Positions 3,001-50,905 of a stretch of 64,000 nt of DNA are shown here, one piece after another (the first letter of the stretch is position 1; the number at the start of each line of letters is the position of its first letter). The stretch is from NCBI GenBank assembly GCA_047967505.1, contig CM106538.1, one strand, 5' to 3'. The position numbers and the translations under genes are program-made. The notes under the pieces are model-generated. The model ran no database searches. It had not been told where the DNA came from and saw only the letters and a list, made by a program, of their open reading frames with translations. This DNA is from Dipteris shenzhenensis (lineage: Eukaryota).

Positions 3001-4271
3001 GCAGAAGGATTTGCCATGGCTCAGTAGTTTTGTGAAGATATCTACTACTTATTCATATGTGTGACAATAAATAAGATCATTATAAAAGTTTTAGAATACA
3101 AAACATTAGAGGAATTTTGGACTCCAAAAAGGCCTTATAAGGAGTGGATTAGCAAAATGGATAAAGAACTAACAAGGCCTATAGAGGGTGCCATCACCCC
3201 ATATGAATCCAAAAAGTACACCTCCCTAGGCTTTGGTGGTTCCAAAAAGTGCACCTCCCTCTCCCACTTGGAGGGGGCCTCCACTTACAAAAATTCACCC
3301 TCTTTACACCATAAGGTGGTCCCCATCTCGTGGGTACCACTCCCCCAAAAAATTTGACTTTTTTGAAAACTTCAAAACTGACCTAAAACCCTTCCAAACC
3401 TTCCCCCAAACCATGCCTATGCACCCAAATCACTTTCCAACAGCCAAATCCTACTTCTTCTCACCATAGTCACCTTCCAACCCCTAAATCGTACTCTTTA
3501 TCACCATAATTACTTTTCAACCCCTGAATCCAATTTTTTCTCCCCATTTTGTTATGTTGTAATCTCAAATCTATGTTGCTTCCATTGATCCTATTCTACC
3601 TTGTACTAGTTTAAAATCTTTTTTCTTTTGACTTTCATGATTTATTTTTTCAAATCCTCTTATGGTTCCATTGGAAGATCACACCAACAAGCCATTAAAA
3701 AGCACCTTGCACATTGAAGTTGCACTAGACTATGCTACGCCTCTTTAATGCAGTGGCCACAAGATCGTTGACAAAGAAACATTAGATTGACTACAATAGC
3801 CATTAGATCGTTTTAACAAGTGCTCCATCTATGTTTGAAAATGTGACATGGTTTGTTTCAATATGTAGGAGATGGTCTTCAAGGCTTACATGGCTATTGT
3901 AAATTCATTGGTCATACTAGTGCTGAAGCCCAATTTACCATGATTCACTTGTTGAGAATGGAAGAAAATATTAAAAGACTTAAATATACCACGCATACTC
4001 TCCATGAACAACTAACTCAAGAATTAAAAAACTTTCTGATTCTAAAATTACAAAAAAACATCACAAGAGGCAATCACAAGATTAGTTGGTGATAAGAGCA
4101 AATTGTTGAAAGAGACTTGGTCCCTCTAGCAATATCTTGCTACATTAACTAGGAGATTAGAGAAAATAAATCCCTCTTTGTTACAAGCACAGGATCAAGG
4201 CTGTGTAACCAATGGAGAGCTTGGTATATGGTGATGGAGCAAGGAAGCATAGGGTGCAAGCTACATATTGA

Positions 4272-4286
4272 AACAGTGTAACATCT
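4272..4286 (+). repeat. Left terminal inverted repeat
   Basis: AACAGTGTAACATCT, preceded by TTGA. Confidence 0.85.
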
Positions 4287-4773
4287 CATTTGAGAACTAT
4301 AACCTCAAAAAGAGAACTCTAGGGGAATCTTTGAAAGATTTCCTCTTTTTCATGTGAATTTTATGTTTATTTGAAAAAGATAGCCTTTTTGCGTGACGGT
4401 TTTTGAAAAATTTCATAAAAACCATGCTTTTGTGAAATTTTGTCGACAAAGTTTTTTTGGAAAACGGGCACAAACACCTACACTTGGAATACCAAATTTG
4501 CAAAAAATACATTAATTTTTTAAAACCAATACAATAAGGGCCTATGCATCCAATGCTCATAAAAGGACCATGGCATAACACATTTCAAAATCCTAAAAAG
4601 GTACAAATCACATTGTTGCACAAACATACATGCCACTGATCCTACAAAGAATAATACTTATCCTTTGATCCTACACCTTCAAATGCACTAGAGCCTGAGC
4701 TTTGTGTGGTAGAAGTTGAACATCCTTCTCTAGGCTATCCACTAGAACATTCTCCGAGTCAACCTGGGTAAGT

Positions 4774-7641
4774 TTAGCTGCCACCCTCTTTTTTGCATGG
4801 CGTGTCTTGGCTTCCATTTGTTGACTGCATCCAATTAATGTCTTTAATATTTTTTGGGATATTATGTATTGTCTCCTTTGGTAAATGCCCGGCTTGTGTT
4901 AATTGAAATGCATATACCAAAATATCTACCTCATCCAATTGTAGAGTATCAATTCTTGGACAATTCTTTGTCGCCCTCTTCCCTTTTTGGCCATGCTTCC
5001 TTGTTACCACCATCTCTGGGTTATATCGACCCATGAAAGCATCCATGGACTTGGTGAAAAACCAATGGACCTCTATTGACTTGGTGTTTGAACCTTCCTT
5101 TTTGACTTTCACAACTTTAGCAATCCAAAAAGGAAATCCACTAGGATCATTTCTTGCTAAAACAGCAACCATCATACCCACTGCCAAGTCCTCGATGATA
5201 CTACTCCACATTTCTTGAACCCTTTCCCTGGCCTTTTTTAGACTTTCTTGCTCCAAGGTACATTTCTCTCTCCTCCCCAAGATAGTTCTTCTTTGAAGGT
5301 GCATGTAAATGCGCACTTGAAGAAGCATTCATACGTGCATTTACAAAATCTTGTTCAATGCATTGTGGCCAACTAAAATCTGACACATCTTGGGGGTCAT
5401 TTAGTAGGTGATTGATAAGTGTTTGGGATACAAAGAATGGATTCCACCATGTCCACACCACATCTTCAAAATATGTTGCAACATGCTGGATTGTTTCTCT
5501 AATCTCATTGACTGAACTTATAGGGTTTGCATCTCTCCCCTCCTTCATGGCTCGTTGCAACTCCCTCACTGATTGTAAAGGTTGTAAGGGTGCCACATAC
5601 AACTCACACTCTGGAACACACTTCAAAAACTTCAATCCTTTGACTGGAACCCAAGTTGGTGATGTGGAATAGAACTTCCCCCACAACAACGTCGTGCCTT
5701 CTTGATCTTTCTTCATTCGAAATTGGTGTTGAAAGCTTAACTCGTTGAGCTTCTCAATAGATCGATCAATTGGCTTGTTGTCACCAAACACAAAGTGTCT
5801 GAAATCTGTTGTTTTTTCCATGTTTGTAATTATCAGTTTTGGCACATATGCATCCTATAAAATGCGTATCATTGCCCTATCCCATGCTTCTTTCCTTCTC
5901 AGCTTTACTGAGAACTAGCTAAACATCTAATCAATATGGTCGTGTGTGTGACCCACCATAAGGAATCCTAATTTCACTTTTAGAAATATGCCTTTCTCAA
6001 CAAGCATGCAAAGATATGCCAACACAACTTGATTCTTGTTCTCTCTCGATGTGTTATCAAGTTGGACATACAACACTTTTGGAAGAGGTTGTGTAAGATT
6101 CCTCAATGCATCATTAAGAATGAAAACTGTGAGATTTCTTACATTTGGTGTCGTAAGATAAACCTTGGGGATTAATTCACCATGGTAGATCATGCATCCA
6201 ACCATGTGATATGTGATGAAGTTCTCCTCTTTCAAATCATTGGGCACTGGTTTGAAGTGTGGAAGATTGGTCTTCTTTTGATCCATCCCATCAATGATGA
6301 TGGTTATGTACTTGTCAGGCTGTTGGTAGCTCTTCTTGCGATGTTTCGCTAACTTCTTCCTTTCTAGAGCTTGCATTTCTCAATGCATTTGCAATTTTGT
6401 GATTGTTTCTTCTGCAAATATAGAAAACAATTAGATGTTGCAAGCAAACCATTTTTGTCAAAAAGAAGCAAAATTTCACGGTATCATTACACACACCTCT
6501 CTCTTGTCCTTGACTTCTATTATGCAAGACCTTCAAGTTTGCACATGTGGCACACACACCAAAGCGACAAAGCTTTGGTATCTTCACATTGTTGAATTCA
6601 TTCTTCCAAATCCTACAAAAATGATGGTATGTCACGTACTTGTCACCTGTAGTAACCATGGCATCCTTGTACATGGAATGGATCTCAAGCTTGGAGAAAT
6701 TATCTGATAAGTGCAACTAGTCACTATTTAGAAGAGCCTCGGCATGTTTTTGCACAAAGTCTTGCAGCCACAAGCATACCATATTGCCATGTGGTCCAGG
6801 CACTCTTATTTTCCTGCTATACAAGTGCAGGGGTCTTTATAGAGGTGGGCCTATAATCTTTTTAGCCTTTTGTTGCCAAGACAATGTGCAAGTCCATATG
6901 CTTTGCAACAAACAATCCTTGAAACGAATTTTGTTCATATTGTTTTCCGTAGGTCTTACAAACCATGCTAAATAAAAATTTTGATCATCTTTATTCATTT
7001 CAACATAATTTTGCCACCGTAAGACCCTTAATTTTGCAACCCCAAAAGTGACTAGGCACATTCTGCTACAGCAAAGAGTATTGCAAGTCTCTTTCAAATG
7101 TGCAGTGTCTAGCATTATACGAGATCTCCCTCTTGTGTAGCTAGACTTTTTGACGTCCACATTCATTGGTCTTCCCTTTAGTCTTAATAGACGAGATTGA
7201 ATTCCACTTCCCCTTTTGTGATAGCCGAGACAGTCATTGAGATCCATCTGGATTAGATGTCCCTTGTAAGAAATAATTTCTAGCTCCAAAAACAAAACAA
7301 AGAGAGCCATTGAATGAACTTAGACATGGACCACATACCTGATAACACTTGTTGACCTCTCGTGCTTGCTTCGACATCTATTATTTCATTGTCTTCAATG
7401 GGAATATCAGGTCCATGGATTTGAGTACCTAGGCTTCTATGTCCACCATCATGCTTAGGTAAAGGAGTAGGAGACACATCCAAGGTGGCCAAAAAGGTTC
7501 CACCACTAGTACAAAATACATGCAATGTAGCAAAGCACCCTTGGAACTGTGAGAAGAAGAAATTGAGATAGACGTAGTGTCAAATAAACCTCCCATGCAG
7601 AAATTTGGCAAGCTTCAAAGGGGATGCCCCAAAAGTGCCAT
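4774..7641 (-). pseudogene. Sola/DUF7869-like DDD transposase (stops and frameshifts; GT-AG intron at 6496-6412)
   Basis: Motifs CCSRMC, FCRIWKNEFNNVKIPKLCRFGVCATC, IIIDGMDQKKTNLPHF, LYVQLDNTSRENKN, FLMVGHTHDHID. Removing intron 6496-6412 joins ORF 6716 in frame to ORF 6376. Start and end coordinates are approximate. Confidence 0.8.
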
Positions 7642-8319
7642 GCAACAATGAAAGGTAGAAATTATGTGCCTGACCATAAAAGTCAAGGTTAGGTTTAGGG
7701 TTTTGGAGCATAGAGGAATTTCTAAAAATAGTATATTTTCTCTATAAACATGAGATTCTCACATTTGTTTCTCATTATTTCCAAATATGCCCAAGAGTTC
7801 AAAGAATCACCAGGTATGTGCAATTTTCTTATGGTTAAGTGTGTTTTATTTTTAATTCAGTCATGAAATCAAATTTTACTGTGTGCTTCAATATAATTTA
7901 CCGTATTTAAAAAATGGGGGTGGTGTGCTTGAATATTATTTAAAGTACTTTATGTTTGCTTTTTTGAAAGCACATTGCTTTGATTGCTAGTCTATCCTAT
8001 TTTACTAAAAATAAAAAGAAACATTTCTAAAACTAAATTCCTCTATATTCTACCCCAATCCCTTCTTGTTAGTTTCTCTAACCTCTCCATCTCTCCCTCT
8101 ACCATCTACCCCTCTCAGCTCTCCAGCTTTGCTAGGTAAGCTCTCCATCTCCTCATGCATTTGTTTAATTTTTTTTGGACTGAAGGGAGCTGCTTCTTCC
8201 CCGCCATCTTTTTCTTCTTCTTCCCCACCATCTTCTTCTTCTTCTTCCCTGAGCTCCCCCACTGATGCGCCCGTCGATTCTCCTCCCCAACCTCTTTTTC
8301 CCCTCACAGATTCAACACA

Positions 8320-8486
8320 CCTTCCACCATGCATGCAACCCAGTCGATGATATCATCGATTGGGCGCTTGCCCGGTCGATGATATCATTGACGAGCTGGT
8401 AGCCTGTCGATGATATCATCGACCGGGCAATGCGCCCATCAATGATATCATCGACTAGGCTACCAGGCTGCATGCATGGTGGAAGG
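8320..8486. repeat. Long hairpin containing four copies of palindrome GTCGATGATATCATCGAC
   Basis: Copies at 8343, 8375, 8406 (perfect) and 8438. Outer arms CCTTCCACCATGCATGCA (8320-8337) and TGCATGCATGGTGGAAGG (8469-8486). Confidence 0.92.
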
Positions 8487-8499
8487 CAAGGTGTTAGCC

Positions 8500-8500
<1 letters not shown>

Positions 8501-8552
<52 letters not shown>

Positions 8553-8659
8553 AGGGAGAGAATCAGAGAGGGAGTTAGGGAGAGAGGGAGAGAAGGAGAG
8601 AGAGAGTTAGGGAGAGAAGGAGTTAGGGAGAGAGGGAGAGAGAGAGTTAGGGAGGTAGG

Positions 8660-8709
<50 letters not shown>

Positions 8710-8716
8710 GTGAGAG

Positions 8717-8766
<50 letters not shown>

Positions 8767-8772
8767 GGAAGA

Positions 8773-8814
<42 letters not shown>

Positions 8815-8859
8815 GTGAGAGGGGAGAGAGAGAGAGAGAGAGAGAGAGAAATAGGAAGA

Positions 8860-8952
<93 letters not shown>

Positions 8953-8972
8953 TAGTTGGAGAGAGGGAGAGG
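8501..8972 (+). repeat. Interrupted (GA)n microsatellite upstream of the ParB-MTase gene
   Basis: About 470 bp of GA dinucleotides with recurring AATAGTGAGAGGGG and AATAGGAAGAAAG interruptions. Confidence 0.95.
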
Positions 8973-9352
8973 GTTTTTTGGTAAATTTTGTTTATTTTTT
9001 GGTCAATTTGTATTGAAAAGCAAAATTTTCTCTTCGAATTATGGAGTTGTTTTTTGTGTTTTTAAATTAAATTTGTGAGAGAGAGAGAGGTGTTTTGGCC
9101 ATAATTTTGTAGTTTTTGCATTGTAGTGTTGTTACTTTCCATGCTTTTTTCTTTTTTATTCTCTAGTCCAAAATCATGTTCCAGTAATAAGCATGTCGGC
9201 ATCTTTTTCCATGAAGAATGTAGATGTTAGAAGCTCAAAGTCTTTTTAGAAACCATCAAACTTGTTGTACTAGCTTTTGTTTTTTTCAACTTGAGATATT
9301 CTCTCCATGATATCATAATATTTTGACATTGTTTATGTCTTTTATAGGTATC

Positions 9353-12300
9353 ATGTCGAACAAACAACCTTTCGGAGAAATCCGTGTCTTTGGAAAGCCC
9401 ACATCGGAGGATGCTTCCAAAAGATAAGGGTGGAAAAGAAAGGCACCAAGGAACCAAAGAAAAGTGTCAAGGATCCAAGTCTTGAGGTGCAACAGCTTCA
9501 ACAGATTTATGATGTTCCTGCTCCGTTGGATGTTCGTTGCAAATTCGAAAATTATGGGACATAGCGAAGTACACAATAACATTGATTCAAAATGGACCAT
9601 CAAAGTTGACACTGATACAAAAGAGATTACTTTGTTGCTTCCAAAGACACTTCCCACTGGAAGATCAGTTTTTAAGCCAATAATATAGATTAAAGATATC
9701 TCAAGAAGTGAGTCCAATGAGGAATGTGTTGAAATGCTTGGGATTGATAACAATAAGAAACCTATTGTTTGTATTGTTATGGAAGAGAAGTTCTCTTTGA
9801 AAGCTGTTACTCCACCCGCTATAGCGGAACAAATAAAACAAATCAAAGAGGAAGGGAAGGTTAGTTACTATCGATAAGTAATTTCTAATTTTCTATGTTT
9901 ATGTAAATTCTTTTGAATACTATGAGAGATTCAACTTTGTTTTGTGTGTCCAGAATCTTATTTATCACTTGACAAATCAAATTGTGGAGGTTGATGAAAT
10001 AATCAAGGAGATGGAGGTATCAACTTCCAATAGTGATTCTGAGGAGCATACAGAGGAGGGTTATGAAGAAGATACCGCAACATCACCAATCAAACCAAGA
10101 GATTCTTCAAAGTCAAAAGGAAAGGGATCTTCCATGTTGGAGCTGAAAATTTTGGGTTTAATACACAAGGATTAAGAACTCCCATGGGTTCACATGGATT
10201 GAGAGCACCTTCTCTTTTAGGCCATCATGGATTGAGTGCACCCCCACGTGGGCATGGTTTGAGCGCACCCCCAAGTCGGCATGGTTTGAGTGCACCACTC
10301 CCGAAAAAATGACCTCTATTGGCTACAAGTGCGTTTCCTCTTGAGTCTTATGAGGATGTTGTTGAGGAGACTCCATCTATTGCACAAGGGAAAAAACAGA
10401 GTAAACCAGGATCAAAGGCTCCAAGGAGAGTACAGCCATTGGATATCATTGAAATCCCAACTAGTGGTGAGCTGCAAGTACCAGGAGCTGACATTGGAGA
10501 TGGTACCTCAGATACACAACAAAATAGAGTCCGAGCAAAGGTACAACAAGATAACCTTGTGGATCGACAGACTTTCTTCTTGCACATTGATCATGTTATT
10601 AAACCTCCTATTGATCCTAGGACTGCTGGCCTTCGACCATTTGAGGTGCATGCAATACATCCTTTCCATATTGAGAATTTGAAGTCATGAAGGAAGGACA
10701 ATCTACATGCACAAGTTGTGAACTACATTGTGCTCGTGGATACAAAAGATTGTCTAGACAATGCATCTTTTGATCGTCGGAAAGCAAATGATTATAACCA
10801 CTTTGTTCTTGGAGGCTTCCATTCAACAAAGGCAAAAAGGCAGTTGAATATTGAGTTTCCATGCAACTCTCATTACAAGACATGTAATTGTACAGTTTAT
10901 GCTGGTTTGACTGATTTGGAGCAAACTTACTGGCTTTTGATCACAATAATGACAATGACTATAGGAAGTCCATGTCTTGGATAGAACGGGTTCGTTTCCA
11001 TCACAATGAGCTCATTTACAAAACTCAATGAGGATTGTTCTTTGATCACTCTAGAGTTTCACTTGTCTTTGTTGAATGAGACTAGGATTTCCGCAACAAT
11101 TAAAGATCCGTCAAGGCCAAGTGACAGCTTCAGATCATGGGACGGTTTCAAATTGCATTTCATAGTGGAGAAGTTTGGGATTTGATAAATGCAATTTTTT
11201 CAAAGTCGGAGAATTTTGAAATCAAAGGGCATAAAAAACTCAAACCTAAAGGAGTCAAGAAAGAAACCTAGACCTTGAGAAGGCATTACCTGAAGAAATT
11301 CGAGCCACAGCATAGAAGAGCATGTAGGGAATTAAAGATGAGATTCTAATTAAGTATGTGCTTGGCAGAGTGGTGTTTGGGGATCTCTCTTTAGATGAAA
11401 TGGCAATGAATTTGATGAGTAAGTAAACTTCTCTCCTTTGCATCATGTCTCTTCTTGATTTTACGTTAATCTCTTTACGAATAATGTTTCAATAGACTTT
11501 GTTTCAACTGTAAAAGTGAGAAGAATTTTACATGTGTTTTCAATGCAGGCATAAAATATACATGAGAATGCAGGAAGCAATGATCCAGCAATTGAACATG
11601 CCAGATTGGGATGCTATTCAGGAGGAGTATCCAGAGAGTAGTAGGATGGAGAGCTTGGCTCCATATTTCAATGTATTCAAAAGCATGGTATGTCAAATTT
11701 GGTATACATATGCTAATGGAAATTTTCTTTCGAATTGTAGATTTGAATGTTTAAGATATTGAGCTATTTTTTTGACAACCACCTCCAGAAAAGAGGCAAG
11801 AAGGGATCTGAGAGTAGTATGATGCCTGCAAGCTTTAAGCGATTGATTGACCGGGCTGCAAAAGAAAAAGACCGTCAAACTTGACAACAATCTATAACTC
11901 TTAGTGATGACATGTTAGAGTTTGACAACCATCCACCAAACTTTTATCGTGTGCTCAACGAAGATTGCAATGAATTGTCGAAGATAGTTCCAAAGAATGA
12001 GTACACATTGGTCATTGCAAACAAACCATATAGATTTGATGTTCCCGGATCCACCTTTGATGAGGTCCCTTACAAAGAAAAGGAACTAATGAGTCTCCTT
12101 GACCAATTCATGTCAATTACGATGGCAACACTTTGGCATGTCATAATTTTTCATTCAAACTTGCAGTATGGGGCAGTGATGAGTGTCATCAATGATAAAT
12201 GTGCTAGATGTGACCACCTTTATTGATGAGTGTAGCAATGAAATGCAAAGATTTTTTTGGCTCAATTATTATTGTTATAATTGTGGTTTCTTTTGATAAA

Positions 12301-12822
12301 TTTAAAACTTATTTTTGTTTCATGTCGTAGGATGAAACCCAATGTGAGACAAATGAAAGGACATCGATTCACGTCTACTATAGAAAACATTTCAGTTGGG
12401 TATTGTATCAAAAACCACAACTCCTAATTAATCAACTCATAGATTTGTTTTCAAATGAGTATGAGTGGGTACTCGATTTATTTGCTGGTTCAGGCACAGT
12501 CACAGCACGTGCCTTAAAAAAGGGTCGAAATGTAATTGCAATTGAAAAAGATCCTATTCAATGTGATTACATAAAGAAGAGAGTGACTGCTATTCATCAC
12601 TTGCCTGATGAGCATCAGGAGCTTGGTTTGAAAGGTGGGAAGTTCAATGTAGATTCGGTGGTAGCCTCGTCAAGGGAGCCCCAACCTCTTGAGCTATTGA
12701 AACCCGATTTTATGGAGGCAAGCGAGCTAGCTGATACATGGGAGAAGGAGGTTGTGAAAGAGAAAGCGATTGACAAACCCATACAGGAAACCCAGACTGG
12801 GAGGGTGATGAAGATGAGGTAG
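9353..12822 (+). pseudogene. Spliced gene: ParB-like domain fused to beta-class N6/N4 DNA methyltransferase
   Basis: ParB-like segment LRPFEV..HIENLK..NYIVLVD..FVLGGFHS..VYAGLT..LAFDHNNDN (10570-10990). Catalytic motif LVIANKPY (NKPY at 12020-12031) precedes QKPQLLINQLIDLFS..VLDLFAGSGT..GRNVIAIEKD (12409-12552). Frame-preserving introns at 9860-9953, ~11423-11548, 11688-11788 and 12226-12330 (donor apparently mutated GT>AT). Several stops and frameshifts. Confidence 0.85.
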
Positions 12823-13136
12823 ATGACACATATGGGAGAATTGAGTAGACTCTAATTATGGAATTGTATTGACAATTTTTTGTATTTGAATGGTTTCAAT
12901 AGACAAGTGTTCTTAAGACATTTTAGAATCCATATGCTTTGAATGTTTTGAACATTTAGTTTTCCCCATTAATTTGTTGTTGGGGATGGTTATGAAGATG
13001 ATGTAGATGACGCATATGGGAGAATTGAGTAGACTCCAATTATGGAATTATATTGACAATTTTGTGATTTTGAATTGTTTCAATATACAAGTGTTCTTAA
13101 GACATTTGAGAATCCATATGCGTTGAATGTTTTGAA
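12808..13136 (+). repeat. ~180-bp tandem duplication at the 3' end of the MTase gene
   Basis: Unit ATGAAGATGA..GTAGATGAC..ATATGGGAGAATTGAGTAGACTC..GAATGTTTTGAA occurs at ~12808 and ~12992. Confidence 0.85.
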
Positions 13137-13529
13137 AAAGGAGGCATTTACTCTTTCCCATTAATTTGATGATATTTTTTGTTCTTTCAATACTTTATGT
13201 GATACCACAAAGTTTAACTTAAGAATTTTGATAAGGTTATGTTACTACACACAGGAATGAAAGTTGTATCATGTAGTTTTTCTATTGAAAATAAAAGGTC
13301 AAAGGAAGGAAAAAACTTAGAGACTTCTTGATTTTTCTAAATACATTGATATTGTGCTCTGTAGTCAAGGTCCTTCATAATTTGCGAGCATTATGTACCA
13401 AAATTGATACGATTTTAAAAGTTTTGAAAAATTCACTACACAAAATATGACCTTTTTTTGAAATTTTTATAATTTTAATGAATTTTTTAGGGAATCTTAA
13501 AACAAGTACCAATGTTACATACTTGAATT

Positions 13530-13544
13530 AGATGTTACACTGTT
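13530..13544 (-). repeat. Right terminal inverted repeat
   Basis: AGATGTTACACTGTT, the exact reverse complement of the left TIR, followed by TTGA. Confidence 0.85.
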
Positions 13545-15775
13545 TTGACTATTTTGTAATTGTGATGCATTACTTACAACCATGTAGTTGTGTATTTTTC
13601 TAATGTCATCGTTCTTTTTACAAGAATTTTATGGAGGAGGTTACTGGAAAAGAATTCCTATAAAACTTTGTACTGTAAAGAGTGTAGTGAAGAAGAGGGA
13701 TCTTCGTCAGTGTGCATTGTGGCATACAATATTGCAAGAGGTTGCACCTAGGAAATATTGTAGACCTATTAGAAGTTGTCCATGCATGTGATGCTGCAAG
13801 CATTAGTAGAGAAGGGTACGTAGTTGTATATAATGTCTTTGTAAAAGCACTTTGAGGTGAAGGTGTGAAGAATCTTTTGTTTCCAAGACCATTACATGTT
13901 AGAAATGTAAGAGAAAAATAAATTCTACTCTCCAAGATCTATTGTATGGGATTTATACACATTTCAGAAAGCATGATGTTGGAAGGCACAAACAAGACAA
14001 GGCCAAGAGAGTAGAAAGAAAGGTGAACAAGCTACCAAGGGGGCAGAGTGTAACAATGTCTTTTTGGATGTACACAACGTCCAAGCTGCAATGGTAGTGT
14101 TTTACAATATGGAATCATAGGGTAAGTGACATTTCTCTTGTTTATTTGAGTCGCAATTTCTTAAAGGTCTTTTTAAATAGTCTAAATCTTATAATTTTTA
14201 AGATTGTGAATAAAAGTTAGTATTTGTGATTAAGTTGGTTATCAAAGGCCATAAGTTAGAGAGGTTGAGTATTACTTTGATGAATGAAGCCCTTGAACAT
14301 GCCAAAAAAAGGGAAGTTAGAGAGGGCCACTTTTTTAGCTCTCATTTCCATAGGGTAGGCTAGGGCTTGGATGTGTTTTGATCACAAAACAAGTAGATGC
14401 TAATGCCCTACAATGTGGGTTTGGAGCTAGTAATGCCACTTGCACAAGGTCAAATTGACTGGATTTCTCTCCGTCTAGACCTTTGGCAAAGTCCTCTCAC
14501 TATGACATTATTACCCAAGCCTTGAGCTCTTAAACGGACCTGTTCGCCACCCTCAGTCCTTGAACCCATGAGTTGAACCATGGTGAGTTGGGATGTAGAT
14601 GGATTCCATGATTATGCAAGATAGGACCACAGCACTAGATTCTTCACTAGAATTGTAGAGCCCTTGTAAGGGGGCCCAATAGACAATCTTATGCTTCATG
14701 ATGAAAAACTCTCTATCATTGTTTGACATTGATTTGTGCTAATTGATGCCTTGACCATCATTTTAAATTGTTGTAGACTATTTGGAGCTCCTCTTGAAAT
14801 TTTCATAAGCTCATAAATGTTTTGTTTTATATTTGGATAGAAGAGTACTTCTCCTCAAAGATAGTGATGGTTTGTAACATAGTTTTTTCCCATCTTCTTG
14901 AAGGATTTTATACAATGATTGTTTCATCTCTTCTATCCAAATTTTCTTCCTTTGAAACTTCCTAATAAGCGCATGGATAAATAAATAGATTTGGGTATTC
15001 TATCAGAAATTGCATGTTGCAATTTCTTTCATGGAATTTCGAACTCTCGTATAATTTATGGTGTACATTCCAATTTGATACTACAATTTTATTCTAAAAA
15101 TGTAAATGTCTACAAGAATTTCATATATCATTGAATCAAATGGAGACATTTCAGAATCAATATTTCTAAATGCATGACGTACTCTTGTTTGTTCTTTATG
15201 GATAAAGACTTTGATATGTCTCATTTTTAAAATACCTGGAGACATAATTTTGTGCATGTGGACTTTGTTGGGGACTCCTCTCAAGGGGTTAAAGATATTG
15301 TGTGATTTGTTGGGTTCTCTTGGAGTCGGTCGGCTAGTCGTATGATCATGAGGTGGTTGCGAGGCTTTGATTGGTGGACCATGCAAGTATTTGGAGGCCG
15401 GCCAATGCATGCAGTATGTGTGGTGGTTCCTTGGTTGAGAGCAAGTAGTTTTTGAAGGTTCACGTGCGGCAACTAACTTCTCTCTCAAGCTGATCAATAT
15501 ATGAACCATGGAGGCAATTGGATCCATCTCTTTGTCAAGGCCGTCGAGCTTGTAGGAGTCGCAACTAGTAGTTGCTTATAGTTCTAGGTATAGGAGTCAT
15601 TTGCAGGTCTTGTAATAGCCAACAAACCCCGTAGGGTTGAGGCTCATTTTGTCAACAAATAATAGGAGGAGTCGAGTCGTTTTCATTGCAGTATTTCATC
15701 TTTTCTATATCACTCTTTTGATGCTATATGTGAAGAGTTGATCTCCAATTAGTTTGATGCTTTGAGAGACAACCG

Positions 15776-40745: not shown

Positions 40746-43384
40746 TGTTGGAATACTGAAAGGAAAGAGTAGAGTGGACACAAAATCAGAATACTTGCTT
40801 ATGGAATGAAGAAAAGTGAGGTCCTTAAGTAGGCACCTCATACAAGCTCACTGACATCACTGATGACTTCAGAGCTCCACAATCATCTCCTCAATCTGCT
40901 CCTAGATTCTCTCAATCATCCTATGTGGCTCTCCACCACCTAACTGTGCTTGTGGGCACCTAACTGTGCCTCTAGCACTCACACATAGAAACATAAGGTG
41001 TGCCTGAGGCATACACCTTCAGATATCCCAACAAACCCCTCCTCAAGGAAATGCCTCAGGCTATGTCAAGGATACATCTAGTCTCATAGTTTCTCATGCC
41101 ATCTCATGGTGGTCAAGGATTAATCTATGGCTAGGTTCTCATGCTAGCAAGGGTTCCCTTGGGTGTAAGGTAAACAAAAGGGATACAAAAAGACCTTCCA
41201 ATGGTTATCTCCCCTGCATGTACATGCACACAATGTCTGCAGGAGGTACCATGGAACAAAACATACACATGGCCTACATCATAAGGTGACCAGAGGTGTT
41301 TACAAAACACACAAAACACAATAGTTTATTTTCATTCATTTTGGAGGACTATCCAGGCTGAGTACCTTGACATAAAAAGAGAGATCTGGAGCATACATAG
41401 AGATGTGTTTAAAATGCATAATCTTCAAAGGATGCCTCATCTTGTGGAGGCTCATTAACTGTAAGTAGATTTGCATTTTCTGTCTTTGCTTTGGCTCTGC
41501 AAAACTTCTCATGATGGTTGTTCTTGCCACAGTGCTTGCATGGATTAACTTTGAAGCAGTCCTTTGAAAGGTGATTTGTCTTTCCACAGTGATTGCAAGG
41601 AGTATACTTGCCCTTCTTGACTTTTACAGCATAAGCAGTGTCATTGCCTTTCCTTAGCTCCATATGCCTTTCTTCTTCTTGGAGAGCAGAGATAATGCCT
41701 TCAAGGTTAGGATTGGGAAGATTCTTCAAAGTGCTAACAATGTGATCAAAACTTTCAGGCATACTCTTAAGTAACACTGCCATAGCATCATCAGGAGTGA
41801 TAGGAGAGTTGATAGAAGCTAATTGAGTCATAAGACTCCGCATATAGTTGACATGAGCAGCTAAAGTAGTATCACTTGCCATCTTTAATTCAAAGAAAGA
41901 GATTTTAAGTGATAGTTTAGAGATGTGAGAGCTTGCACCAAAAATCATGTCTAGCTTCTGCCAAGCTTCCGAAGGAGACTCCAAATCAGAGATATGGTGT
42001 ATATAATCATCACCCAAAGCAAGAGTAATGATACCATATGCCTTTTCTTCTCTTGCTGGATCCCTTGCTGGTCGTGTCGGTGTTGAGGATTCTCCAGCAT
42101 TGGAGGCTGTAGAAGAAGCGGTAGGAGTAGGTTTGACAAGTCCCCATAAGTTCTCCCGCATCAATGCAAATTTCACCTTCATTTGCCATGTATGGAAGCC
42201 CTTTCCATTGAACTTCTCAAGATTATATATGGTAGCCATGAGAGGGTCTAACCCAGATATTGGGCAGTGTCTATCTCTCTTACAAGGCAAAAATAACTGA
42301 AAGACTTCCAAAATATGAGCACTTAATGTAGCAAATAGTAGTGACTAGATTTCAAACAATGATGCTTCTTCTTACATGCTTCATAGAAGTGGATGAAATA
42401 AACATTTTCCAATCAAAACCAGGTCTAGCAAGTCAAAACAAAACTGAATCCACACTTGTACTGAAGTTATTGAAAGCTTCAAAAAACCAGAAATGCTAGA
42501 GTAGCATTTTATGTAGCATCATCTTCAAAAACTTGTCCAAAACTATCAAAACTGAAAAGCTGAACTTGGAGGGCTTGTAGCTCACTCTTCAAAGCAAGGA
42601 AAAGAGGGCTTTCTGAAGCAAAAGAAAGCTCATATACCAGAGAAGGTCCAGCACAGAGGTTGGACGAAATGGTGCGCACTTTTGCCCGGGAGAGTTGCTA
42701 CAGGCTGAAACTGAGTTTTGACGATTTCTCCCTCGTTACTGAACCAAATGACCTGAAAAATGGCTCAAAATCTTCGTCTTGAGGTCGCCCATCTACTCCT
42801 AAGAGGGCTCAGGCAGTGGCAGAGTAGGCAGGGAGTATTGAGCAACAGAAGAAATTCGCTGTTTGGAGAATGGCAGCCACCACAGACGTTTTTTCTTCAA
42901 TTGCTTGCAGGTGGAAGTTCGCCCATACTAGAGGAGTTTCCAGCTCAGAGGGTTTGGGCAATGGCTGTTTGTAGATGGAGAACCAAGCTCTCAAAGATTT
43001 TGGGAAGAAAGAGGAAAATGGAGAAGAAGAAGAAGATGATGATGATGATGATGTGGCAGAAATGGGCTCAAGGGGGATCAAAGGGCTCTGATACCATGTT
43101 GGAATACTGAAAGGAAAGAGTAGAGTGGACACAAAATCAGAATACTTGCTTATGGAATGAAGAAAAGTGAGGTCCTTAAGTAGGCACCTCATACAAGCTC
43201 ACTGACATCATTGATGACTTCAGAGCTCCACAATCATCTCCTCAATCTGCTCCTAGATTCTCTCAATCATCCTATGTGGCTCTCCACCACCTAACTATGC
43301 TTGTGGGCACCTAACTGTGCCTCTAGCACTCACACATAGAAACATAAGGTGTGCCTGAGGCATACACCTTGAGATATCCCAACA
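40746..43384 (-). mobile_element. Gag-only non-autonomous LTR retrotransposon (TR-GAG type), 2,639 bp
   Basis: 288-bp TG..CA LTRs at 40746-41033 and 43097-43384 (3 differences seen); TSD CATGA; PBS at 43085-43096; PPT next to 41034; no pol. Confidence 0.93.
41409..42239 (-). CDS. gag: Intact Gag (276 aa) with two CCHC zinc knuckles
   Basis: MATIYNLEKFNGKGFHTWQMKV..; CNHCGKTNHLSKDC and CKHCGKNNHHEKFC. Confidence 0.88.
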   Translation of the reverse strand: MATIYNLEKFNGKGFHTWQMKVKFALMRENLWGLVKPTPTASSTASNAGESSTPTRPARDPAREEKAYGIITLALGDDYIHHISDLESPSEAWQKLDMIFGASSHISKLSLKISFFELKMASDTTLAAHVNYMRSLMTQLASINSPITPDDAMAVLLKSMPESFDHIVSTLKNLPNPNLEGIISALQEEERHMELRKGNDTAYAVKVKKGKYTPCNHCGKTNHLSKDCFKVNPCKHCGKNNHHEKFCRAKAKTENANLLTVNEPPQDEASFEDYAF

Positions 43385-45441
43385 CATGAGCCAGCTAACT
43401 TTGCACAAGACCAGCATTGGGCTTTTCTTGTTACGTGTCGATATAATCCCGATGTTCATGATGTTCATGAAGGGTCGCGTCGACAAAAGAGAGCACGTAC
43501 AAGATACAGGGGTCGATGAGAAACGCCGTCACGTCAACTAGGATAGATGAAAAAAGGAATACAAGATACTTGTACCTAGACCTAAAGGAATACAAGGTAC
43601 TTGTACCTAGCCCTAGGACTAAGTGTCCTAGGTGTCACATAGAACTAAGTGTCCTATGAGGCCTACCAGGCACAAACGCTACAAGTGCCTATATTTATGC
43701 CTACAAGGCACATACCATAGCCTATAGGGCATCACTAGAACCACCAGGAGATGGCCTACAAACCCCCCTCCATGGGATGGGCTAAAGTACTCTGGAAACG
43801 TCTCAGAATACCTGGTATTTTCTGGTCATCGTGGCACATGTTCCTCCAAAAGGATATAGCCACCTACGAATGTGCAAGGGATGTCAGATCATGTAACAAA
43901 GGGAACCAAGTGTAAAGCCTGTCGAAAGACTTCGAACTTCAGACGAGGAAGTGCCTCTATAAACATATCTCCTATGTTGTCCTCTATGGGAAGATAGGAC
44001 AACTCTATGTCTCCTGTTGACAACCGCTCCCGAACATAATGATAGTGAACTTCAATATGCCTGATACGCGCATGAAACACTGGGTTACGCGCAATGGCCA
44101 AAGCACTCTGACTATCAGTGTAGACCATAGTGGAGGATGTCTGGCGAATACCAAGATTCGTAAGTAACTGTCGAAGCCAAACACACTCTACTGTAGCGGT
44201 GAAAGCTGCCCTGTACTCAGCCTCATAGCTAGATGTGGCAACTGTTGGTTGCTTCTTGCTGAGCCAAGAGATACATGAATTGCCAAGCAAAAAACAATTG
44301 CCAGTATGTGACACTCTAGTGTCGGAACATCCTGCCCAGTCACTATCCGTGTAAGCATGCATAGTAAGTGAACCCTGATCACCATAGAAGAGGGCTAAAT
44401 CCTGAGTGCCTCTAAGATATTTGAAGACTCTCTTCACTGCCTGCCAATGCTGTGAATTGGGCATGTGCATGAATCTGCTGAGCTGACATACTGCATACTG
44501 TAAGTCAGGTTTGGTGTGACATAAATAAATAAGGTACAACCGAAACTGAATTTAAAAACTGTCCACAGCTCTCCCTTCTCCAAAGCTCTCCCTCTCTCTG
44601 GACAAACACTAGGGCCCAGGACAAATTGTCGGGCTGGACCCCCCCGAAGGTCTTTATTACTTTCAGAAAAACTGTTACAAAAGTTCAGCAGGAAGCTGTC
44701 TCGTAAGTCTCTCTCATAAAACGTCAAAAGAACTCTCTTTCTTACAAGAGCTTCAAGCCCCATTCAAATTGGCAACATGCCACTTGTCTAAAATCTAGAC
44801 TAACTCTTATTACAAGCCACATAGGGCCATTCTGGAGTCTTCCAGGCTCTCGGTCACACGAACCGCTTCCTAGGTGCTTGTCAGGCTCCCATCTCGCTTA
44901 GGAAAATAATCCTTCCTAGTACCTGCAACAATTAATTAAAGCGCACCACCATGGTACCCATTAATTGTTAGCGCTTTGCATGCAAAATAACACACTGTGG
45001 ACTAATCCTAGTCACGGTGGGCGTCCCCACTGAACACATGTGCACATCTAAACAAATATATATATATATATATAAATATATATATATTTTCTCTGGTTGA
45101 CCGGAGTCAACACTCTTGATTATAATTAAAGAGCTTCGACCCAAGGTCAGGGCGCCTTAATTATAGCCAAGTCTCTCCAACCGAGGTTGGCACATCTTGG
45201 TTAACCGGTGTTAACCCCTCTTGGCGCATGCCAAGTCTTGTTGACCGAAGTCAACGCTCTCTGACCATAGTCAGGTTTACTTGACTAGAGTCAAGTATCT
45301 TTGACCGTAGTCAATCCTTTGACCATTAAAATAACTCTTTGACCGTAATTAACACATATAAAACTCTTTAATTATGATCAAATAAATGGTCAACTGTACT
45401 TTGACTTAGGATATTTACATTTGGTGACATCCCCTCGGCTT

Positions 45442-48400
45442 CTATTCAGTTGACCTCAACTGAAAAGCTTCCTTGTAAACATCCAAAAGCTGTGGATGAT
45501 CGGATAACATGTCTTCGTCCATCCACTTGGCATCTAATGCCGTATAATTCTTGAATTTTACAAGATACCTGTAAAATTCTTTACCCTGAGGGCCTTTACG
45601 TACAATATGGTACACAATTTGCTCTGGCTGAAGGACTTCCTCCAGCTCATCCACTTCTGGTGGATCTTCTGATACTGGTTCTGTAGGCTCTGGTCCCTGA
45701 AATTTCTTTAGAAGACTCACATGGAATGCATTGTGAATCCTCCAATGCTCTGGCAATGCTAATCTGTATGCAACCTCATTTATTCTTTCTGTAACCCTGA
45801 AAGGGCCATAGTATCTGGGAGATAACTTTGCATACACTTTCTGTTTGCCTTTAAACTTGCGGAGCCTAGCTTTTTCAAACTTTAAAAGTACCCAGTCCCC
45901 TTCCTTGAGATCCAACTGTCTCCTATGTTTATCTGCAGCCCTTTTATGTTTCTCTTGAGACCTTTCAATTGCTGTCCGGACTTGGCTGTAAGCTGTCTGG
46001 AGGTCTCTTACAAACTGATCAGCTGCAAATATTTCATCTTTAGTCCTCAATATAGGTGGCAAAATCACCTTCCCATATATGACTTCAAAAGGGGCTTTCC
46101 CTGTAGAGCTATGTACTGTATTATTGTAAGCAAACTCTACTAACGGTAGGTACTTTTCCCAGTCTGAACTTTGGTCACCCACGTAGCATTTCAGCATATC
46201 CAAAATGGTAGAATTTGCTACTTCACTTTGACCATCTGTCTGGGGATGGAAAGAAGAAGAAAAATTCAAATTCGTCCCCATGTTATCAAATAAAGCTCTC
46301 CAGAATAGACTGGTCATTCTGGGATCTCGATCACTAACAATGGACTTAGGCATACCATGATGTTTAAAGATCTGTGCCATAAACAACTTAGCCATATGAT
46401 CTGCCTTTATGGTTTTGCGAACCGGAAGGAAATGAGCTTGCTTGCTGAATCTGTCTATGATAGTCCAAATCCCGTCATTTCCTGACTTTGATCTTGGCAA
46501 ATCAAAAATAAAGTCCATTGTAATATTTTCCCATGGTGCCTGAGGCACGGGAAGAGGCATAAGTAGGCCAGGTGCCTTCTGTCTATCATACTTCATTTTC
46601 TGACACGTAAGGCATTCAGTAACAAACTGATGTATATCTTTCCGCATTTCTGGCCAAAAGAAATACCTCTCTAGTGCTAGAGTTGTTGCTGTAATTCCTC
46701 TGTGTCCAGCATAGGGAGGTGCATGGCATTCCTCCAAAATCTTTTTCCTCATCTCCTGGGTGATGCATAGGCAATCATCTTTCATTAAATACCCATCTTT
46801 CAGGGAATAGTGACTGGTGGATTGCCCTTCTTGCATCTGCTGTAAAATTTCACCAAAATCAGAATCATGAGCATATTGTTCCCTCATGTCTTCCAGGTCT
46901 TGATGATAAGCAATAGTTACATTATTGACCTGGGGTCTTCGGGACAAGGCATCTGCCACTCTGTTCCGAATTCCTGGAGTATGGACAATCTGAAAATGAT
47001 ACATTGACAGCATGTTTGCCCATTTCATATGCTTCTCTGAAAGCTTGGTCTGAGTCAAAAAGTATTTCAGACTTTGGTGATCTGTTTTAACAGTAAAATC
47101 TGCACCCAAAAGGTAATGTTTCCAGGTATGGATAGCATGAATTACAGCCAATAACTCTTTCTCATAGATTCCTAAATATCTTTCCGCATCCCGAAGTCGC
47201 CTGCTTTCATAAGCTACTACATGACCATTCTGATGCAATGCAGCCCCAACACATTCTCCACAAGCATCACAATCCACATCAAAAGACTGATACATATCCG
47301 GAACTACCAGAATAGGCTCTGTAGTCAACTTTTCCTTGAGTGTATTGAATGCTTTCTTCTGTGATAATCCCCATGTGAAGGCTGCATTTTTCTTAGTGAG
47401 GTCATGTAATGGAGCTGCGATATCAGCAAAATGTCTGATAAACCTTCTGTAGTAAGAACACAAGCCTAAAAAGCTTCGAACTTCATGCACAGTTTTCAGC
47501 TCTGGCCATTCTTGAATGGCACGGATCTTCGCTGGATCCATTTGTATCCCATTCTTGGATATTATATGCCCCAGATAATGGATTTCTTCCAAGAAGAACT
47601 CACTTTTCTTGCTGTTTGCATAGAGCTGATGATTTCTCAGCTCTTGAAACACTATAGCAAGATGTTCTCTGTGGTCTTCATCTGTCTTAGAAAAAACTAA
47701 GATATCATCAAAGAAAGTACCGGTAAAATGCCTGTACTTCCGGAAGATGCGATCCATCATTCTATTAAATGTGGCTGGAGCATTTGTCAATCCAAAAGGC
47801 ATCACTAAGTATTCATACAACCCGAATGTTGTGCGGAATGCTGTCTTATGCACATCCTGAGGCTGTATCCTCACTTAGTGGTAGCCACTCTTCAAGTCTA
47901 TCCTGCTGAAAACTGAAGCTCCATTTAACTGATCCAAGACATCATCAATACGCGGAATAGGGAATCTATTCTTGATGGTCATTTTGTTCAGTGCGCGATA
48001 ATCAACGCACATACGGAATGAACCATCTTTCTTCTGTACTAACAGTACAGGGGAACAAAAAGGAGACGAGCTGGGCTGAATCAAGCCTTTGGACAGCAAG
48101 TCCTGTACTTGAGCCATAATCTCCTCTCTCTGAGTCGCACTGACTCTATAAGGGGGTCTGTTTGGTGGCTCACTACCAGGCATTAACTCTATCTGATGAT
48201 CTTCTGGTCTCTCTGGGGGTAACTCCCCTGGCAAAACATCAGAAAAGCAATCTTTAAAGTTTACCAAAAACTGAAACTTATCTTTGTCTGCATCATTCAT
48301 TTCAGCATGCATATCAGTCTCTTTTTCTTTTACAAAAACCATGTACGCAGAAATTGCAGACTTTATTGCTTTACCGCATGAAACATCAGATACAATGGGG

Positions 48401-50103
48401 ATAGTGTCCCCTTTATTCCTGGCAATTACACGCTGATTTTTCCCCCTATGTACAAATTCCAGCACTCTTTCAGGAAGAGTCAACTTCACTGCCTTACGAT
48501 GAAACCAAGGCATCCCCAAAACTACATCATAATGTTTCAGTGGAGAAATGAAGAAGTCTTCCTGATCCACATAACTCTGAATATGAAGACGGAGCTTCCC
48601 TATCAAGGGAGTAACTGGCACAGGATTCCCACAAAACATTTGATCGGCATCCAAAGCCCTGCCTAGCTCTTCCGTCTTTATTCCCAGCCTCAGGGCTAGA
48701 TCCTCTGATATGAAATTATCAGTAGCCCCTGGATCAAATAAAATCAGCGCTTGCTGGTCTCTAACTTTGCCCCATGATAGCAGCAATTCTCGTTCTTCTG
48801 GGTTCAAAGCATGACCCAGTATATCAGGAATACCCCCCGCCATTGGCTTTTGCGGTCCTCGTGGCTTCTCTGCCTCTTTTCCCTTCGATGATGAAGGCTT
48901 TTCTGGGCACTGGGCAGCCACATGCCCCTCTTTACCGCACCTGAAGCATTTCCCATCTCTACGGAATTCCGCTATCTGTTCAGGGGTAAAAATAGATTTG
49001 CCCTTATAGGTCTTTGAGAACTGAGTACCCCTCGGCTTCTGAGACTGAAACCCTTTCTTTTCAGCCTTAGGGGACTCTTTCTTTTCTGATTTTTGAAAAT
49101 CAGATTTCTTTTTATCAGCACGTCCTGCATGCAAGGATGGCACTGTAGATGGATCTTGTAGCGGTACAAGACTCGCTACTGAGGCTGAATGCATAAGATC
49201 TTGAATATTCTTTGCCCCCAAAGCATTCACTACTGCCTGAATTCTTGGAGTGAGACCTGCTCTGTACTTCCTCATCTGGGTACCTTTGGAGATCTTTTTG
49301 AACGGTGCAACCTGCAAATAAGCATCCCAGAACTTTTGGTTGTACCCATCCACTGTATCTCCTGCATCCATGTGCAAGCTGTCCCAGTCTTGAAGAACAT
49401 GGTCTCTGAACTGTTTAGGCATGAACTGCTGGTAGAAGGCTTTCTTGAAGCCCTTCCACTTTCTTGGGGCTGACCCATCTGTAGTCAGTGCACTCCACCA
49501 TGCACTAGCCGTTGCTGTTAAGTGTAAGCTGACCATTCTTAATTTGGAGGATTCTGAAAATTTCTCTGTACCAAATGCAGCATCAAACTGTCTGATAAAC
49601 TGCAATGCTTTGTCTGTATGACCATACTGTCCATTGTAGGTCATAAACTTGACAGATTTTCCTCCCTCTTTAAATTCCTTGGTCGCTTTGGAAGACTTTC
49701 TCTTCCCAGACTTCTCGTGTTCCTTCTTCCTGGATGGTTTATCTGATAAGGAAGAAGAAGACACAGAAGTCGAACTCGAGGTAGACGGTGATGGACTAGG
49801 AGATCAGTGACGATGCCTCGATCTCTTTTTACTATGGAACCGTCTCCTATGAGATCTATGAGATCTCTCTCTCTCAGACTGTACACGGGAGTGTGCCTCT
49901 GGCATTGGCACGTCATATACTGGATCAGGCATAGCCTCTGCTGGAAACAAATGCTGAGCCCTGGGATCCCTTTTAAGATTTTCCAGCTCTTGTATACGAG
50001 TGCGTACCATTTGTTCAAATTCTTGTTGAGTTTGTGGCACATTCCTCTGTCTTGGATGCTCATCCCTATCTTGAGAATCCCACTGGATAGGTGATTGATC
50101 CAT
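45442..50103 (-). pseudogene. Single-frame gag-pol (gag, protease, RT, RNase H, integrase, chromodomain) with two in-frame stops
   Basis: [45 protein letters not shown]. Stops at 49804-49806 and 47875-47877. Confidence 0.9.
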
Positions 50104-50749: not shown

Positions 50750-50905
50750 GCCACGTGTCAGTGCCATGTCAGCATCTGAGCTGTCTGCCACCTGTACTGC
50801 GCCACGTCAGCGCCACGTGTCCTGTGCCACGTGTCACTGCCACGTCATCTGGTGCACTGTGAACCTGCTGGCTGCCACGTCAGCATCACGTCAGCGCCAC
50901 GTGTC
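50750..50905. promoter_or_regulatory. Cluster of ABRE/G-box-like motifs in the chromovirus leader
   Basis: Four GCCACGTGTC and three GCCACGTCA within ~155 bp. Function is inferred only. Confidence 0.5.

Follow-up and report, generated by a model that had tools for sequence, protein, structure and literature searches.

Four phased palindromes within a long hairpin between the divergent genes of a candidate land-plant transposon

Between two divergently oriented genes of a candidate cut-and-paste transposon we found an array of four phased 18-bp palindromes, enclosed entirely in an imperfect palindrome of 167 bp (8320..8486) which was delimited by its symmetry and folding and is capable of forming a long hairpin or cruciform. 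The array lies in a stretch of 64,000 nt from Dipteris shenzhenensis (GCA_047967505.1, contig CM106538.1), to which we refer as the window. Tentatively, we favour reading the array as a native set of dimer-binding sites for a protein encoded by the element itself, probably its ParB-fold methyltransferase, which would recognise its own control region. That a protein binds the array, which protein it is and what its binding would bring about are the parts that we infer.

Anatomy of the array and its hairpin

A search of the window for the 18-mer GTCGATGATATCATCGAC with up to three mismatches returned four matches, every one of them inside the array. This count compares with 0.01 expected by chance, and none of 100 shuffles gave four. 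The copies are found at 8343..8360 (GTCGATGATATCATCGAT, one mismatch, C to T at 8360 in a CHG context), 8375..8392 (GTCGATGATATCATTGAC, one mismatch, CpG to TpG at 8389), 8406..8423 (no mismatches) and 8438..8455 (ATCAATGATATCATCGAC, two mismatches, both G to A at CpG). Thus the positions 8343, 8375, 8406 and 8438, where an earlier note on this DNA had reported four 18-bp palindromes, were right, although the exact palindrome occurs at 8406 only. The degenerate 16-mer TCRATGATATCATYGA is matched exactly by all four copies in the window search, against an expectation of 0.03, and the 12-bp core GATGATATCATC is invariant across the four. The eight half-sites comprise five of the form GTCGATGAT and three variants. 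Regarding the spacing, the start-to-start distances are 32, 31 and 32 bp, around 3.0 helical turns, and TRF reported a period of 32 with 3.7 copies at 8339-8455, which agrees with the period of 31-32 bp given before.

We also searched the window for the half-site, allowing up to one mismatch, and obtained 26 matches against 8.4 expected. The array accounts for seven of them; the other 19 are scattered, and only two of these (5191 and 11977) fall within the transposon. None of the matches in the window is close to the termini of the element; therefore, the array is not simply the end-binding site of a transposase. The array is the single one in the 64-kb window, where no further copy of the hairpin or of the element was found.

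Copies 3 and 4, spacer included, repeat copies 1 and 2 in reverse-complement orientation. The inner arms span 59 nt each (8339-8397 and 8401-8459), leave 3 nt between them and show 83% complementarity in an ungapped comparison. When the two halves were aligned with gaps, 72 of the 77 aligned columns were identical, the five substitutions were all transitions and there were 12 gap columns, so that the near reverse complementarity claimed for the two pairs, spacers included, was borne out. The structure is closed by outer arms detected in an inverted-repeat search. The left one (8320..8340, CCTTCCACCATGCATGCAACC) is 21 nt long and contains the palindrome CATGCATG, and the right one (8466..8486), also of 21 nt, is its reverse complement at 95%; 18 of these nucleotides pair perfectly and correspond to the 18-bp outer arms described earlier. 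The 14-mer core of the outer arms is present in the 64-kb window solely in these two places. Furthermore, 7-8 additional nt in the right half reproduce the central spacer in reverse complement, and this gives the order palindrome-A-palindrome-B-palindrome-rcA-palindrome-rcB.

The region 8310-8496 folds with -77.5 kcal/mol as DNA (z -14.5) and with -130 kcal/mol as RNA (z -15.1), and in neither case was any of 200 shuffles as stable. Base pairing runs a few bases past the outer arms, where the flanks AACAC and GTGTT prolong the inverted symmetry. We looked for a target-site duplication at the ends of the hairpin (...AACACA and CAAGGT...) and found only the 2-bp CA/CA. Outside the hairpin, on the plus strand at 8265..8278, there is a relic fragment, ATGCGCCCGTCGAT, made of the spacer and the first 6 nt of the palindrome. 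It is the undecayed form of 8430-8443, and this sequence has two matches in the window against 0.00 expected. The lack of a target-site duplication, together with a relic of spacer plus half-site beyond the outer arms, argues against a discrete insertion; the independent MITE with its own duplication, which the earlier note had considered as the outcome contrary to its reading, is likewise disfavoured by ends that share only CA/CA. Each half already holds two phased palindromes, and therefore the basic repeat is older than the inverted duplication. By the same token, since the halves represent one inverted duplication, the four sites may be two sites copied once and need not reflect selection for four.

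The hairpin also differs from the rest of the element in its CpG content. It holds 11 CpG with an observed/expected ratio of 0.93, against 0.33 for the element overall and a median of 0.32 for its windows, and none of the other 875 windows of 167 bp in the element reaches 11 CpG, the maximum being 6. The four deviations from the consensus of the palindrome are all C-to-T or G-to-A, three at CpG and one at CHG. Such transition-only deviations look like the decay of four once-perfect sites by deamination driven by cytosine methylation. Those at 8360 and 8438 mirror each other, so they are probably older than the inverted duplication. The CpG retention means either that protection or selection acted on these sites for a long time in the active lineage, or that the hairpin is younger than the rest of the element.

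The flanks have opposite strand polarity. The left flank (8200..8319) is pyrimidine-rich, with a purine fraction of 0.21, and the right flank (8487..8999) is purine-rich, with a fraction of 0.88-0.95, and includes a (GA)n microsatellite of around 470 bp which starts just right of the hairpin. The polarity flips exactly at the hairpin. This flip, together with the pairing that continues past the arms, does not agree with insertion into a microsatellite that was already there.

The candidate transposon and its methyltransferase gene

To judge from its sequence, the window is land-plant-like DNA. Pfam identified in it a Ty3/chromovirus polyprotein, a copia gag and reverse transcriptase, and a LINE-type reverse transcriptase, and no tRNA genes were found in the window. 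The bacterial framing of the earlier note therefore had to be dropped: a bacterial origin is ruled out by these LTR and LINE retroelements, by the lack of tRNA genes and by the fern, liverwort and Ginkgo relatives described below.

A candidate left terminal inverted repeat, AACAGTGTAACATCTCATT, lies on the plus strand at 4272..4290 with TTGA before it (4268-4271), and a candidate right one lies on the minus strand at 13526..13544 with TTGA after it (13545-13548). The repeats are 19-20 nt long with one mismatch and bracket exactly a DUF7869 gene and a methyltransferase gene. In 1-22000, no inverted pair other than 4271-4290/13526-13545 reaches 19 of 20 matches over a separation of 2 kb or more; a comparable pair appeared in 4 of 200 local shuffles. 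Because this pair has TTGA on both sides, 4272-13544 was taken as a candidate cut-and-paste transposon of 9.3 kb, in which terminal inverted repeats and a target-site duplication surround a transposase-like gene, as is usual for this kind of element.

The transposase-like gene (4837..7199, minus strand) was recognised by its DUF7869 domain (Pfam, E 3e-29) and is broken over three frames. In tblastn, residues 46-806 of an 870-aa Ceratopteris protein align to 7199 to 4837 in three frames, which means that the gene is interrupted or frameshifted. The protein has 91 relatives at E <= 1e-3 among 280 candidates, and the best named ones come from ferns (Adiantum, Ceratopteris), the liverwort Riccia and Ginkgo; marine animals come next. 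In an alignment of 11 family members D326, D404 and D446 are invariant and there are conserved cysteines, a pattern from which we read a putative DDE/D-type transposase. A PDB profile search with this protein returned nothing. Our guess is that it is a transposase of the Sola superfamily with a 4-bp duplication. The available part of the Repbase paper lists Sola merely as a superfamily. Literature searches on DUF7869 and PF25273 yielded no papers, and those on a comparable land-plant element found none either.

The array is situated near the middle of the candidate element. The nearest homology-supported coding sequences begin around 1.1 kb to its left (7199, minus strand) and around 1.9 kb to its right (10343, plus strand). 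In our own reading, an in-frame ATG at 9554 may be placed around 1.07 kb to the right. Its description as lying between divergent genes was accordingly correct in orientation, but the genes are interrupted eukaryotic genes at these distances. This copy of the element is dead, as seen from in-frame stops, frameshifts and transition decay; the plus-strand gene has an in-frame TGA at 10688-10690 and, by our own reading, another in-frame stop at 9686-9688.

The plus-strand gene (10343..12822) encodes a putative ParB/Srx-fold N-terminal domain, a helical middle part and an N6_N4 (beta-class) DNA methyltransferase. The exon 12331-12822 corresponds to the C-terminal half of PF01555 (N6_N4_Mtase, E 8e-13). 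Motif IV reads NKPY in the window gene, DAPY in homologue P0102 and DIPH in homologue P0117. For the N-terminal part we used a query of 145 residues (10547-10984, with the in-frame TGA read as X), and 65 proteins were obtained at E <= 1e-3 in an exhaustive search. Pfam placed PF01555 downstream in 4 of 22 longer homologues (3 of them above the curated cutoff) and ParBc in none of the 22. Two homologues of around 670 aa, P0117 (Ginkgo Gb_37443) and P0102, align in the same order along 10649-12687 of the window, from the domain through the methyltransferase, and therefore this is one fusion gene. The neighbouring methyltransferase proposed in the earlier note is thus confirmed as one of N6_N4 type, joined to the domain with the predicted ParB fold.

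Regarding the ParB domain that had been proposed there, the fold was recovered by modelling, whereas searches by sequence were negative: no ParB was found in Pfam (E up to 10), NCBIfam, PHROGs (23 members) or a PDB profile search. An AlphaFold model of 10547-10984, built on an alignment of 23 sequences, had a pLDDT of 88.3 and a pTM of 0.79. Among the 28 Foldseek matches to the PDB that were listed, 27 were Noc, ParB, PadC, KorB, sulfiredoxin, SbnI or pNOB8 ParB-N structures and the remaining one was the uncharacterised Atu1540. The top match, 7ol9_B (E 3.5e-4, TM 0.52), is the sole listed one with E <= 0.001, the TM of the top matches ranges from 0.52 to 0.54, and other ParB-family fold matches in the PDB were 6sdk and 8qa9. 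The predicted structure therefore supports a ParB/Srx fold for the N-terminal domain.

The domain departs from canonical ParB proteins at one key position. The family consensus is V.GG.HS..A (VLGGFHSTKA in the window) and the arginine-bearing nucleotide motif (Box II, GERR-type) is absent, where equating the position of GGxHS with Box II is our own reading of the alignment. In the available portion of a survey of ParB folds (PMC12704722), mutation of the Box-II arginine abolishes nucleotide binding, phage ParB-fold fusions to N6_N4 methyltransferases are frequent, and some fusions to SAM-dependent methyltransferases bind ATP rather than CTP. When P0117 was compared with phages, the match was confined to the methyltransferase part, at around 25% identity, and the predicted ParB domain was unmatched.

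A model of a full-length homologue had a pLDDT of 62.5, with a confident helical block at aa 260-345. It matched the beta-class adenine methyltransferases CcrM, M1.HpyAVI, M.BceJIV and M.RsrI, and also Noc and KorB; for Noc, ParB and KorB the alignments of this model gave an rmsd of around 15 A and a TM no higher than that of the N-terminal domain alone. By NCBIfam profile the nearest named enzyme is CcrM. The site of CcrM is GANTC, and a by-eye check did not find GANTC in the array. The EcoRV and TaqI sub-sites of the palindrome, which had been offered as a clue to the specificity of the methyltransferase, are uninformative, because short restriction sites that are palindromic occur within every palindrome of 18 bp. 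Besides, we take the EcoRV and TaqI enzymes to belong to methyltransferase classes other than the present beta-class one.

What the array may do

According to the reading that we favour, the array would be a native cis-acting module of a cut-and-paste transposon of around 9.3 kb, whose host is a land plant of the fern or gymnosperm kind. With a spacing of about three turns, four sites for dimers would face the same side of the helix within the region that controls the divergent genes. The likeliest ligand would be the protein of the element that combines the predicted ParB/Srx fold with a beta-class N6-adenine/N4-cytosine methyltransferase, and once docked this protein may mark its own element or regulate both promoters. 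This reading of self-recognition draws on analogy with two systems discussed below, PAG3, where it is proposed, and VANC, where it is demonstrated. Several observations count against it. Around 1.9 kb and a 470-bp microsatellite separate the array from the first homology-supported exon of the methyltransferase. The ParB homology comes from a predicted fold (TM 0.52-0.54, best E 3.5e-4); in canonical ParB, moreover, it is the helix-turn-helix that reads parS and not the N-terminal domain. The GGxHS motif also lacks the arginine needed for nucleotide binding, and the red-algal parallel itself depends on a weak HHpred match. Finally, the whole reading is drawn from one decayed copy of element and array.

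The main rival is that the hairpin is a structural accident or passenger, that is, a functionless local inverted duplication or miniature foldback-type insertion between the genes of this one copy, and we consider this a serious but rather unlikely explanation. It would suit the fact that one half is plainly a reversed copy of the other (72 of 77 columns), that the extra 7-8 nt in the right arm could be the sign of a messy rearrangement, that the surroundings are rich in slippage-prone repeats, that the 21-nt outer arms resemble the terminal repeats of small elements and that the 64-kb window has a single copy. However, the ends show no target-site duplication beyond CA/CA, and related sequence (8265-8278) lies outside its supposed ends. 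Furthermore, the basic phased repeat predates the inverted duplication, the CpG retention is extreme for this element and the polarity switch of the flanks is unlike insertion into a (GA)n tract. If the hairpin were a mere local duplication in one dead copy, it would be of little consequence. An alternative in which the host reads the region is a bidirectional promoter or CpG-island-like element. Host transcription factors would then bind the palindromes and the CATGCATG boxes, and the GA/CT-rich flanks would be the leaders of two divergent transcripts. The location between divergent genes, the CpG ratio of 0.93 within CpG-poor DNA, the purine-rich sequence running outward on both strands and the presence of CATGCATG in the outer arms, which we take to be the RY motif of plant B3 factors, are all compatible with it. 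Nevertheless, no host factor is known to us whose 18-bp site has this sequence, searching the literature for the 12-mer core returned only unrelated papers, and exact three-turn phasing of four long identical palindromes is more typically a feature of proteins that bind such sites as dedicated dimers, so that we regard a host-read promoter as unlikely.

If transcribed, the near-perfect hairpin of 167 nt, with the stable RNA fold given above, would be diced into small RNAs which silence or regulate all copies of the family, and this copy does look silenced and decayed by C-to-T transitions. We consider such a source of hairpin RNA quite improbable, because it explains neither the four phased internal palindromes nor the CpG retention, and because no Rfam family was matched in the window at the gathering score. 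In 8250-8560 there were 14 sub-threshold Rfam matches, all far below the thresholds. They fell on both strands, with unrelated miRNA families making up most of them and a snoRNA one; such weak matches are what any long hairpin yields. As for the parS-like loading site suggested in the earlier note, a true parS-type centromere or sliding CTP-clamp loading site, as in bacterial ParABS or KorB, is highly improbable here. Plasmid centromeres and KorB operators are organised as palindrome arrays, four 18-bp palindromes are what would be sought as a repeated site of around 14-18 bp, and the N-terminal domain is predicted to share the fold of ParB, Noc and KorB. Yet this element resides in a eukaryotic chromosome, a Pfam scan of 31 ORF translations (some overlapping, some outside the element) found no ParA-type family, and GGxHS stands in place of the arginine-bearing nucleotide motif. 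Two 12-mer cores 15-25 nt apart were found at just 3 loci among 185,579 prokaryotic genomes (one per species), and all three are unrelated 29-bp tandem duplications without ParB or methyltransferase, with housekeeping genes (PFK/PurE/PurK or pectinesterase/RelA-SpoT) as neighbours. The hairpin had no match in phage and plasmid collections.

Going further than the favoured reading, fern and gymnosperm DUF7869 transposons might use self-targeting adenine methylation, in which a ParB-fold module derived from phage or plasmid ParB-methyltransferases would dock on the array as dimers, write 6mA (or 4mC) and keep the CpG-rich promoter free of silencing 5mC. We put this forward as a speculation that we regard as unlikely. 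If true, a land-plant transposon would have domesticated a prokaryotic cassette of site plus reader-writer for anti-silencing.

Likeness to known systems

In bacteria, parS, Noc-binding sites and KorB operators are palindromes of 13-18 bp, often in arrays or promoter regions, which are read by dimers. The present array resembles them in that palindromes lie beside a protein with a predicted ParB N-terminal fold. It differs in its eukaryotic chromosome, in that no ParA was found in the scanned ORFs and in the missing nucleotide-binding arginine motif, and the sequence of its palindrome is not known to be related to the parS, NBS and OB consensus sequences.

The nearest precedent is that of the Plavaka transposons, from which the present element is nonetheless distinct. 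Its transposase-like gene shows only DUF7869 and not a Plavaka/CACTA (EnSpm) transposase, its termini are AACAGTG... and do not follow the consensus of CACTA-type termini, and no SET or 2OG domain was seen. According to the accessible part of 10.1101/2025.02.11.637652, giant Plavaka transposons of red algae carry PAG2 (a PF01555 methylase with SET) and PAG3 (a ParB-like module with a 2OG oxygenase), tandem inverted-repeat arrays adjoin the PAG3 genes and self-binding is proposed; the ParB call for PAG3 is a weak HHpred match (e-value 0.29). Both cases would thus bring together, in a DNA transposon, a PF01555 methylase, a ParB-like module and an adjacent inverted-repeat array, the likeness of the arrays being by description, and by analogy both suggest an accessory protein which binds its own element. 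As far as that part of the source goes, there are further differences: the predicted ParB fold and the methylase form one polypeptide here and belong to separate PAG2 and PAG3 genes there, the element measures 9.3 kb here against 17-19 kb, and the host is a land plant and not a red alga. Defining features of Plavaka and of bacterial ParABS were looked for and not found in the element that carries the array, which is therefore neither a Plavaka member nor a ParABS system. If the favoured reading is true, the idea from red algae of transposon ParB-like proteins acting with their own arrays would be extended to land plants, here with another type of transposase and with the two domains in one protein.

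The VANC anti-silencing proteins are not known to have a ParB fold or a methyltransferase domain, their motifs are short and not 18-bp palindromes, and the VANDAL transposons that encode them differ from the present element in being Mutator-like. In Arabidopsis, as described in the available text of PMC5735166, VANC was demonstrated experimentally to target tandem repeats in the non-coding DNA of its own VANDAL transposon, and its targets 'often form tandem repeats'. The likeness, inferred in our case by analogy with that text, is that an accessory protein would read motifs multiplied in its own element and alter the DNA methylation of that element.

With MITE and foldback elements the hairpin shares a non-coding length of around 170 bp, inverted-repeat ends, the capacity for a long hairpin and arms made of sub-repeats. 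However, it lacks a target-site duplication, occurs once in the 64 kb, has homologous sequence beyond its ends and is rich in GC and CpG, not in AT. The existence and role of DNA adenine methylation in plants are disputed. If confirmed, the present case would provide a testable system for it, with a defined protein, an 18-bp site and a prediction. In the consulted part of Iyer et al. (PMC4738411), ParB-linked methylases are reported in some algae and chytrids, and not in land plants.

Two observations on motifs elsewhere in the window may be added. The 19 scattered half-site matches equal the highest value among the shuffles, and a fifth match to TCRATGATATCATYGA, with two mismatches, lies at 43199.

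The candidate transposon and its right end

On the basis of terminal inverted repeats and of TTGA on both flanks, we delimited a candidate DNA transposon of 9.3 kb (4268-13548). The inverted repeats at its termini are 19 nt long, with one mismatch between them, and the genes enclosed are a DUF7869 transposase-like gene and the gene for a ParB-fold methyltransferase. Both protein families are also present in Adiantum and Ginkgo. Furthermore, no published description of a land-plant element combining DUF7869 and a ParB-fold methyltransferase was found in our literature search.

Regarding the right subterminal region of the element, we observed a tandem duplication of around 185 bp (12799-13171), whose copies are 87-92% identical and which occupies the point where the methyltransferase reading frame ends and the sequence directly beyond it. 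A fragment resembling the terminal inverted repeat also lies in the region of this duplication, at 13063-13086.

The methyltransferase gene and its upstream sequence

Motif IV, a catalytic motif of the methyltransferase, is NKPY in the gene of the window (11885-12226), and DAPY and DIPH in two homologues, all of which depart from the usual consensus (D/N/S)PP(Y/F). Judging from these residues, this may be a methyltransferase family with an unusual active site or, alternatively, the copies bearing NKPY, DAPY and DIPH may have decayed.

Just upstream of the exon that encodes the ParB-fold domain there are four tandem units of 27 bp (10193-10306), of the form CATGG(A/T)TTGAG.GCACC..., which in one frame give a repeated HGLSAP-like peptide. 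Also upstream of this domain, the stretch 9428-9877 has a coding-like appearance; an ATG (9554) and a single TAG (9686-9688) lie in its reading frame. This stretch had no Pfam match and was not matched by the queries with ParB-fold methyltransferase homologues. It might represent either a first exon specific to this lineage or a small gene in its own right.

The hairpin arms and the half-site

The outer arms that close the hairpin around the four phased palindromes (8320-8340 and 8466-8486) are inverted copies containing ATGCATGG, and therefore open reading frames starting with MHGGR read outward on both strands, at 8050-8334 (minus) and 8430-8984 (plus). These frames are probably a by-product of the palindrome. 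A (GA)n microsatellite is found at 8500-8971, interspersed with GTTAGGGAGAGA units, i.e. with TTAGGG-containing blocks.

The 9-mer half-site GTCGATGAT, which is one half of the 18-bp palindrome of the array, matched 19 times outside the array in the whole window when up to one mismatch was allowed, against 8.4 +/- 3.1 expected, a count equal to the highest one that the shuffles gave. The matches were scattered, without clustering.

Other elements in the window

The minus strand carries a cluster of LTR-retroelement genes (41409-53873), made up of a copia gag (41409-42311), a chromodomain-containing Ty3/chromovirus gag-pol (45442-49764) and a copia RT (52578-53873). Between 56001 and 64000 the GC content rises abruptly from around 0.42 to 0.54-0.61. 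A LINE-like element is represented by a long open frame with RVT_1 and zf-RVT (60496-63999), which continues past the end of the window.
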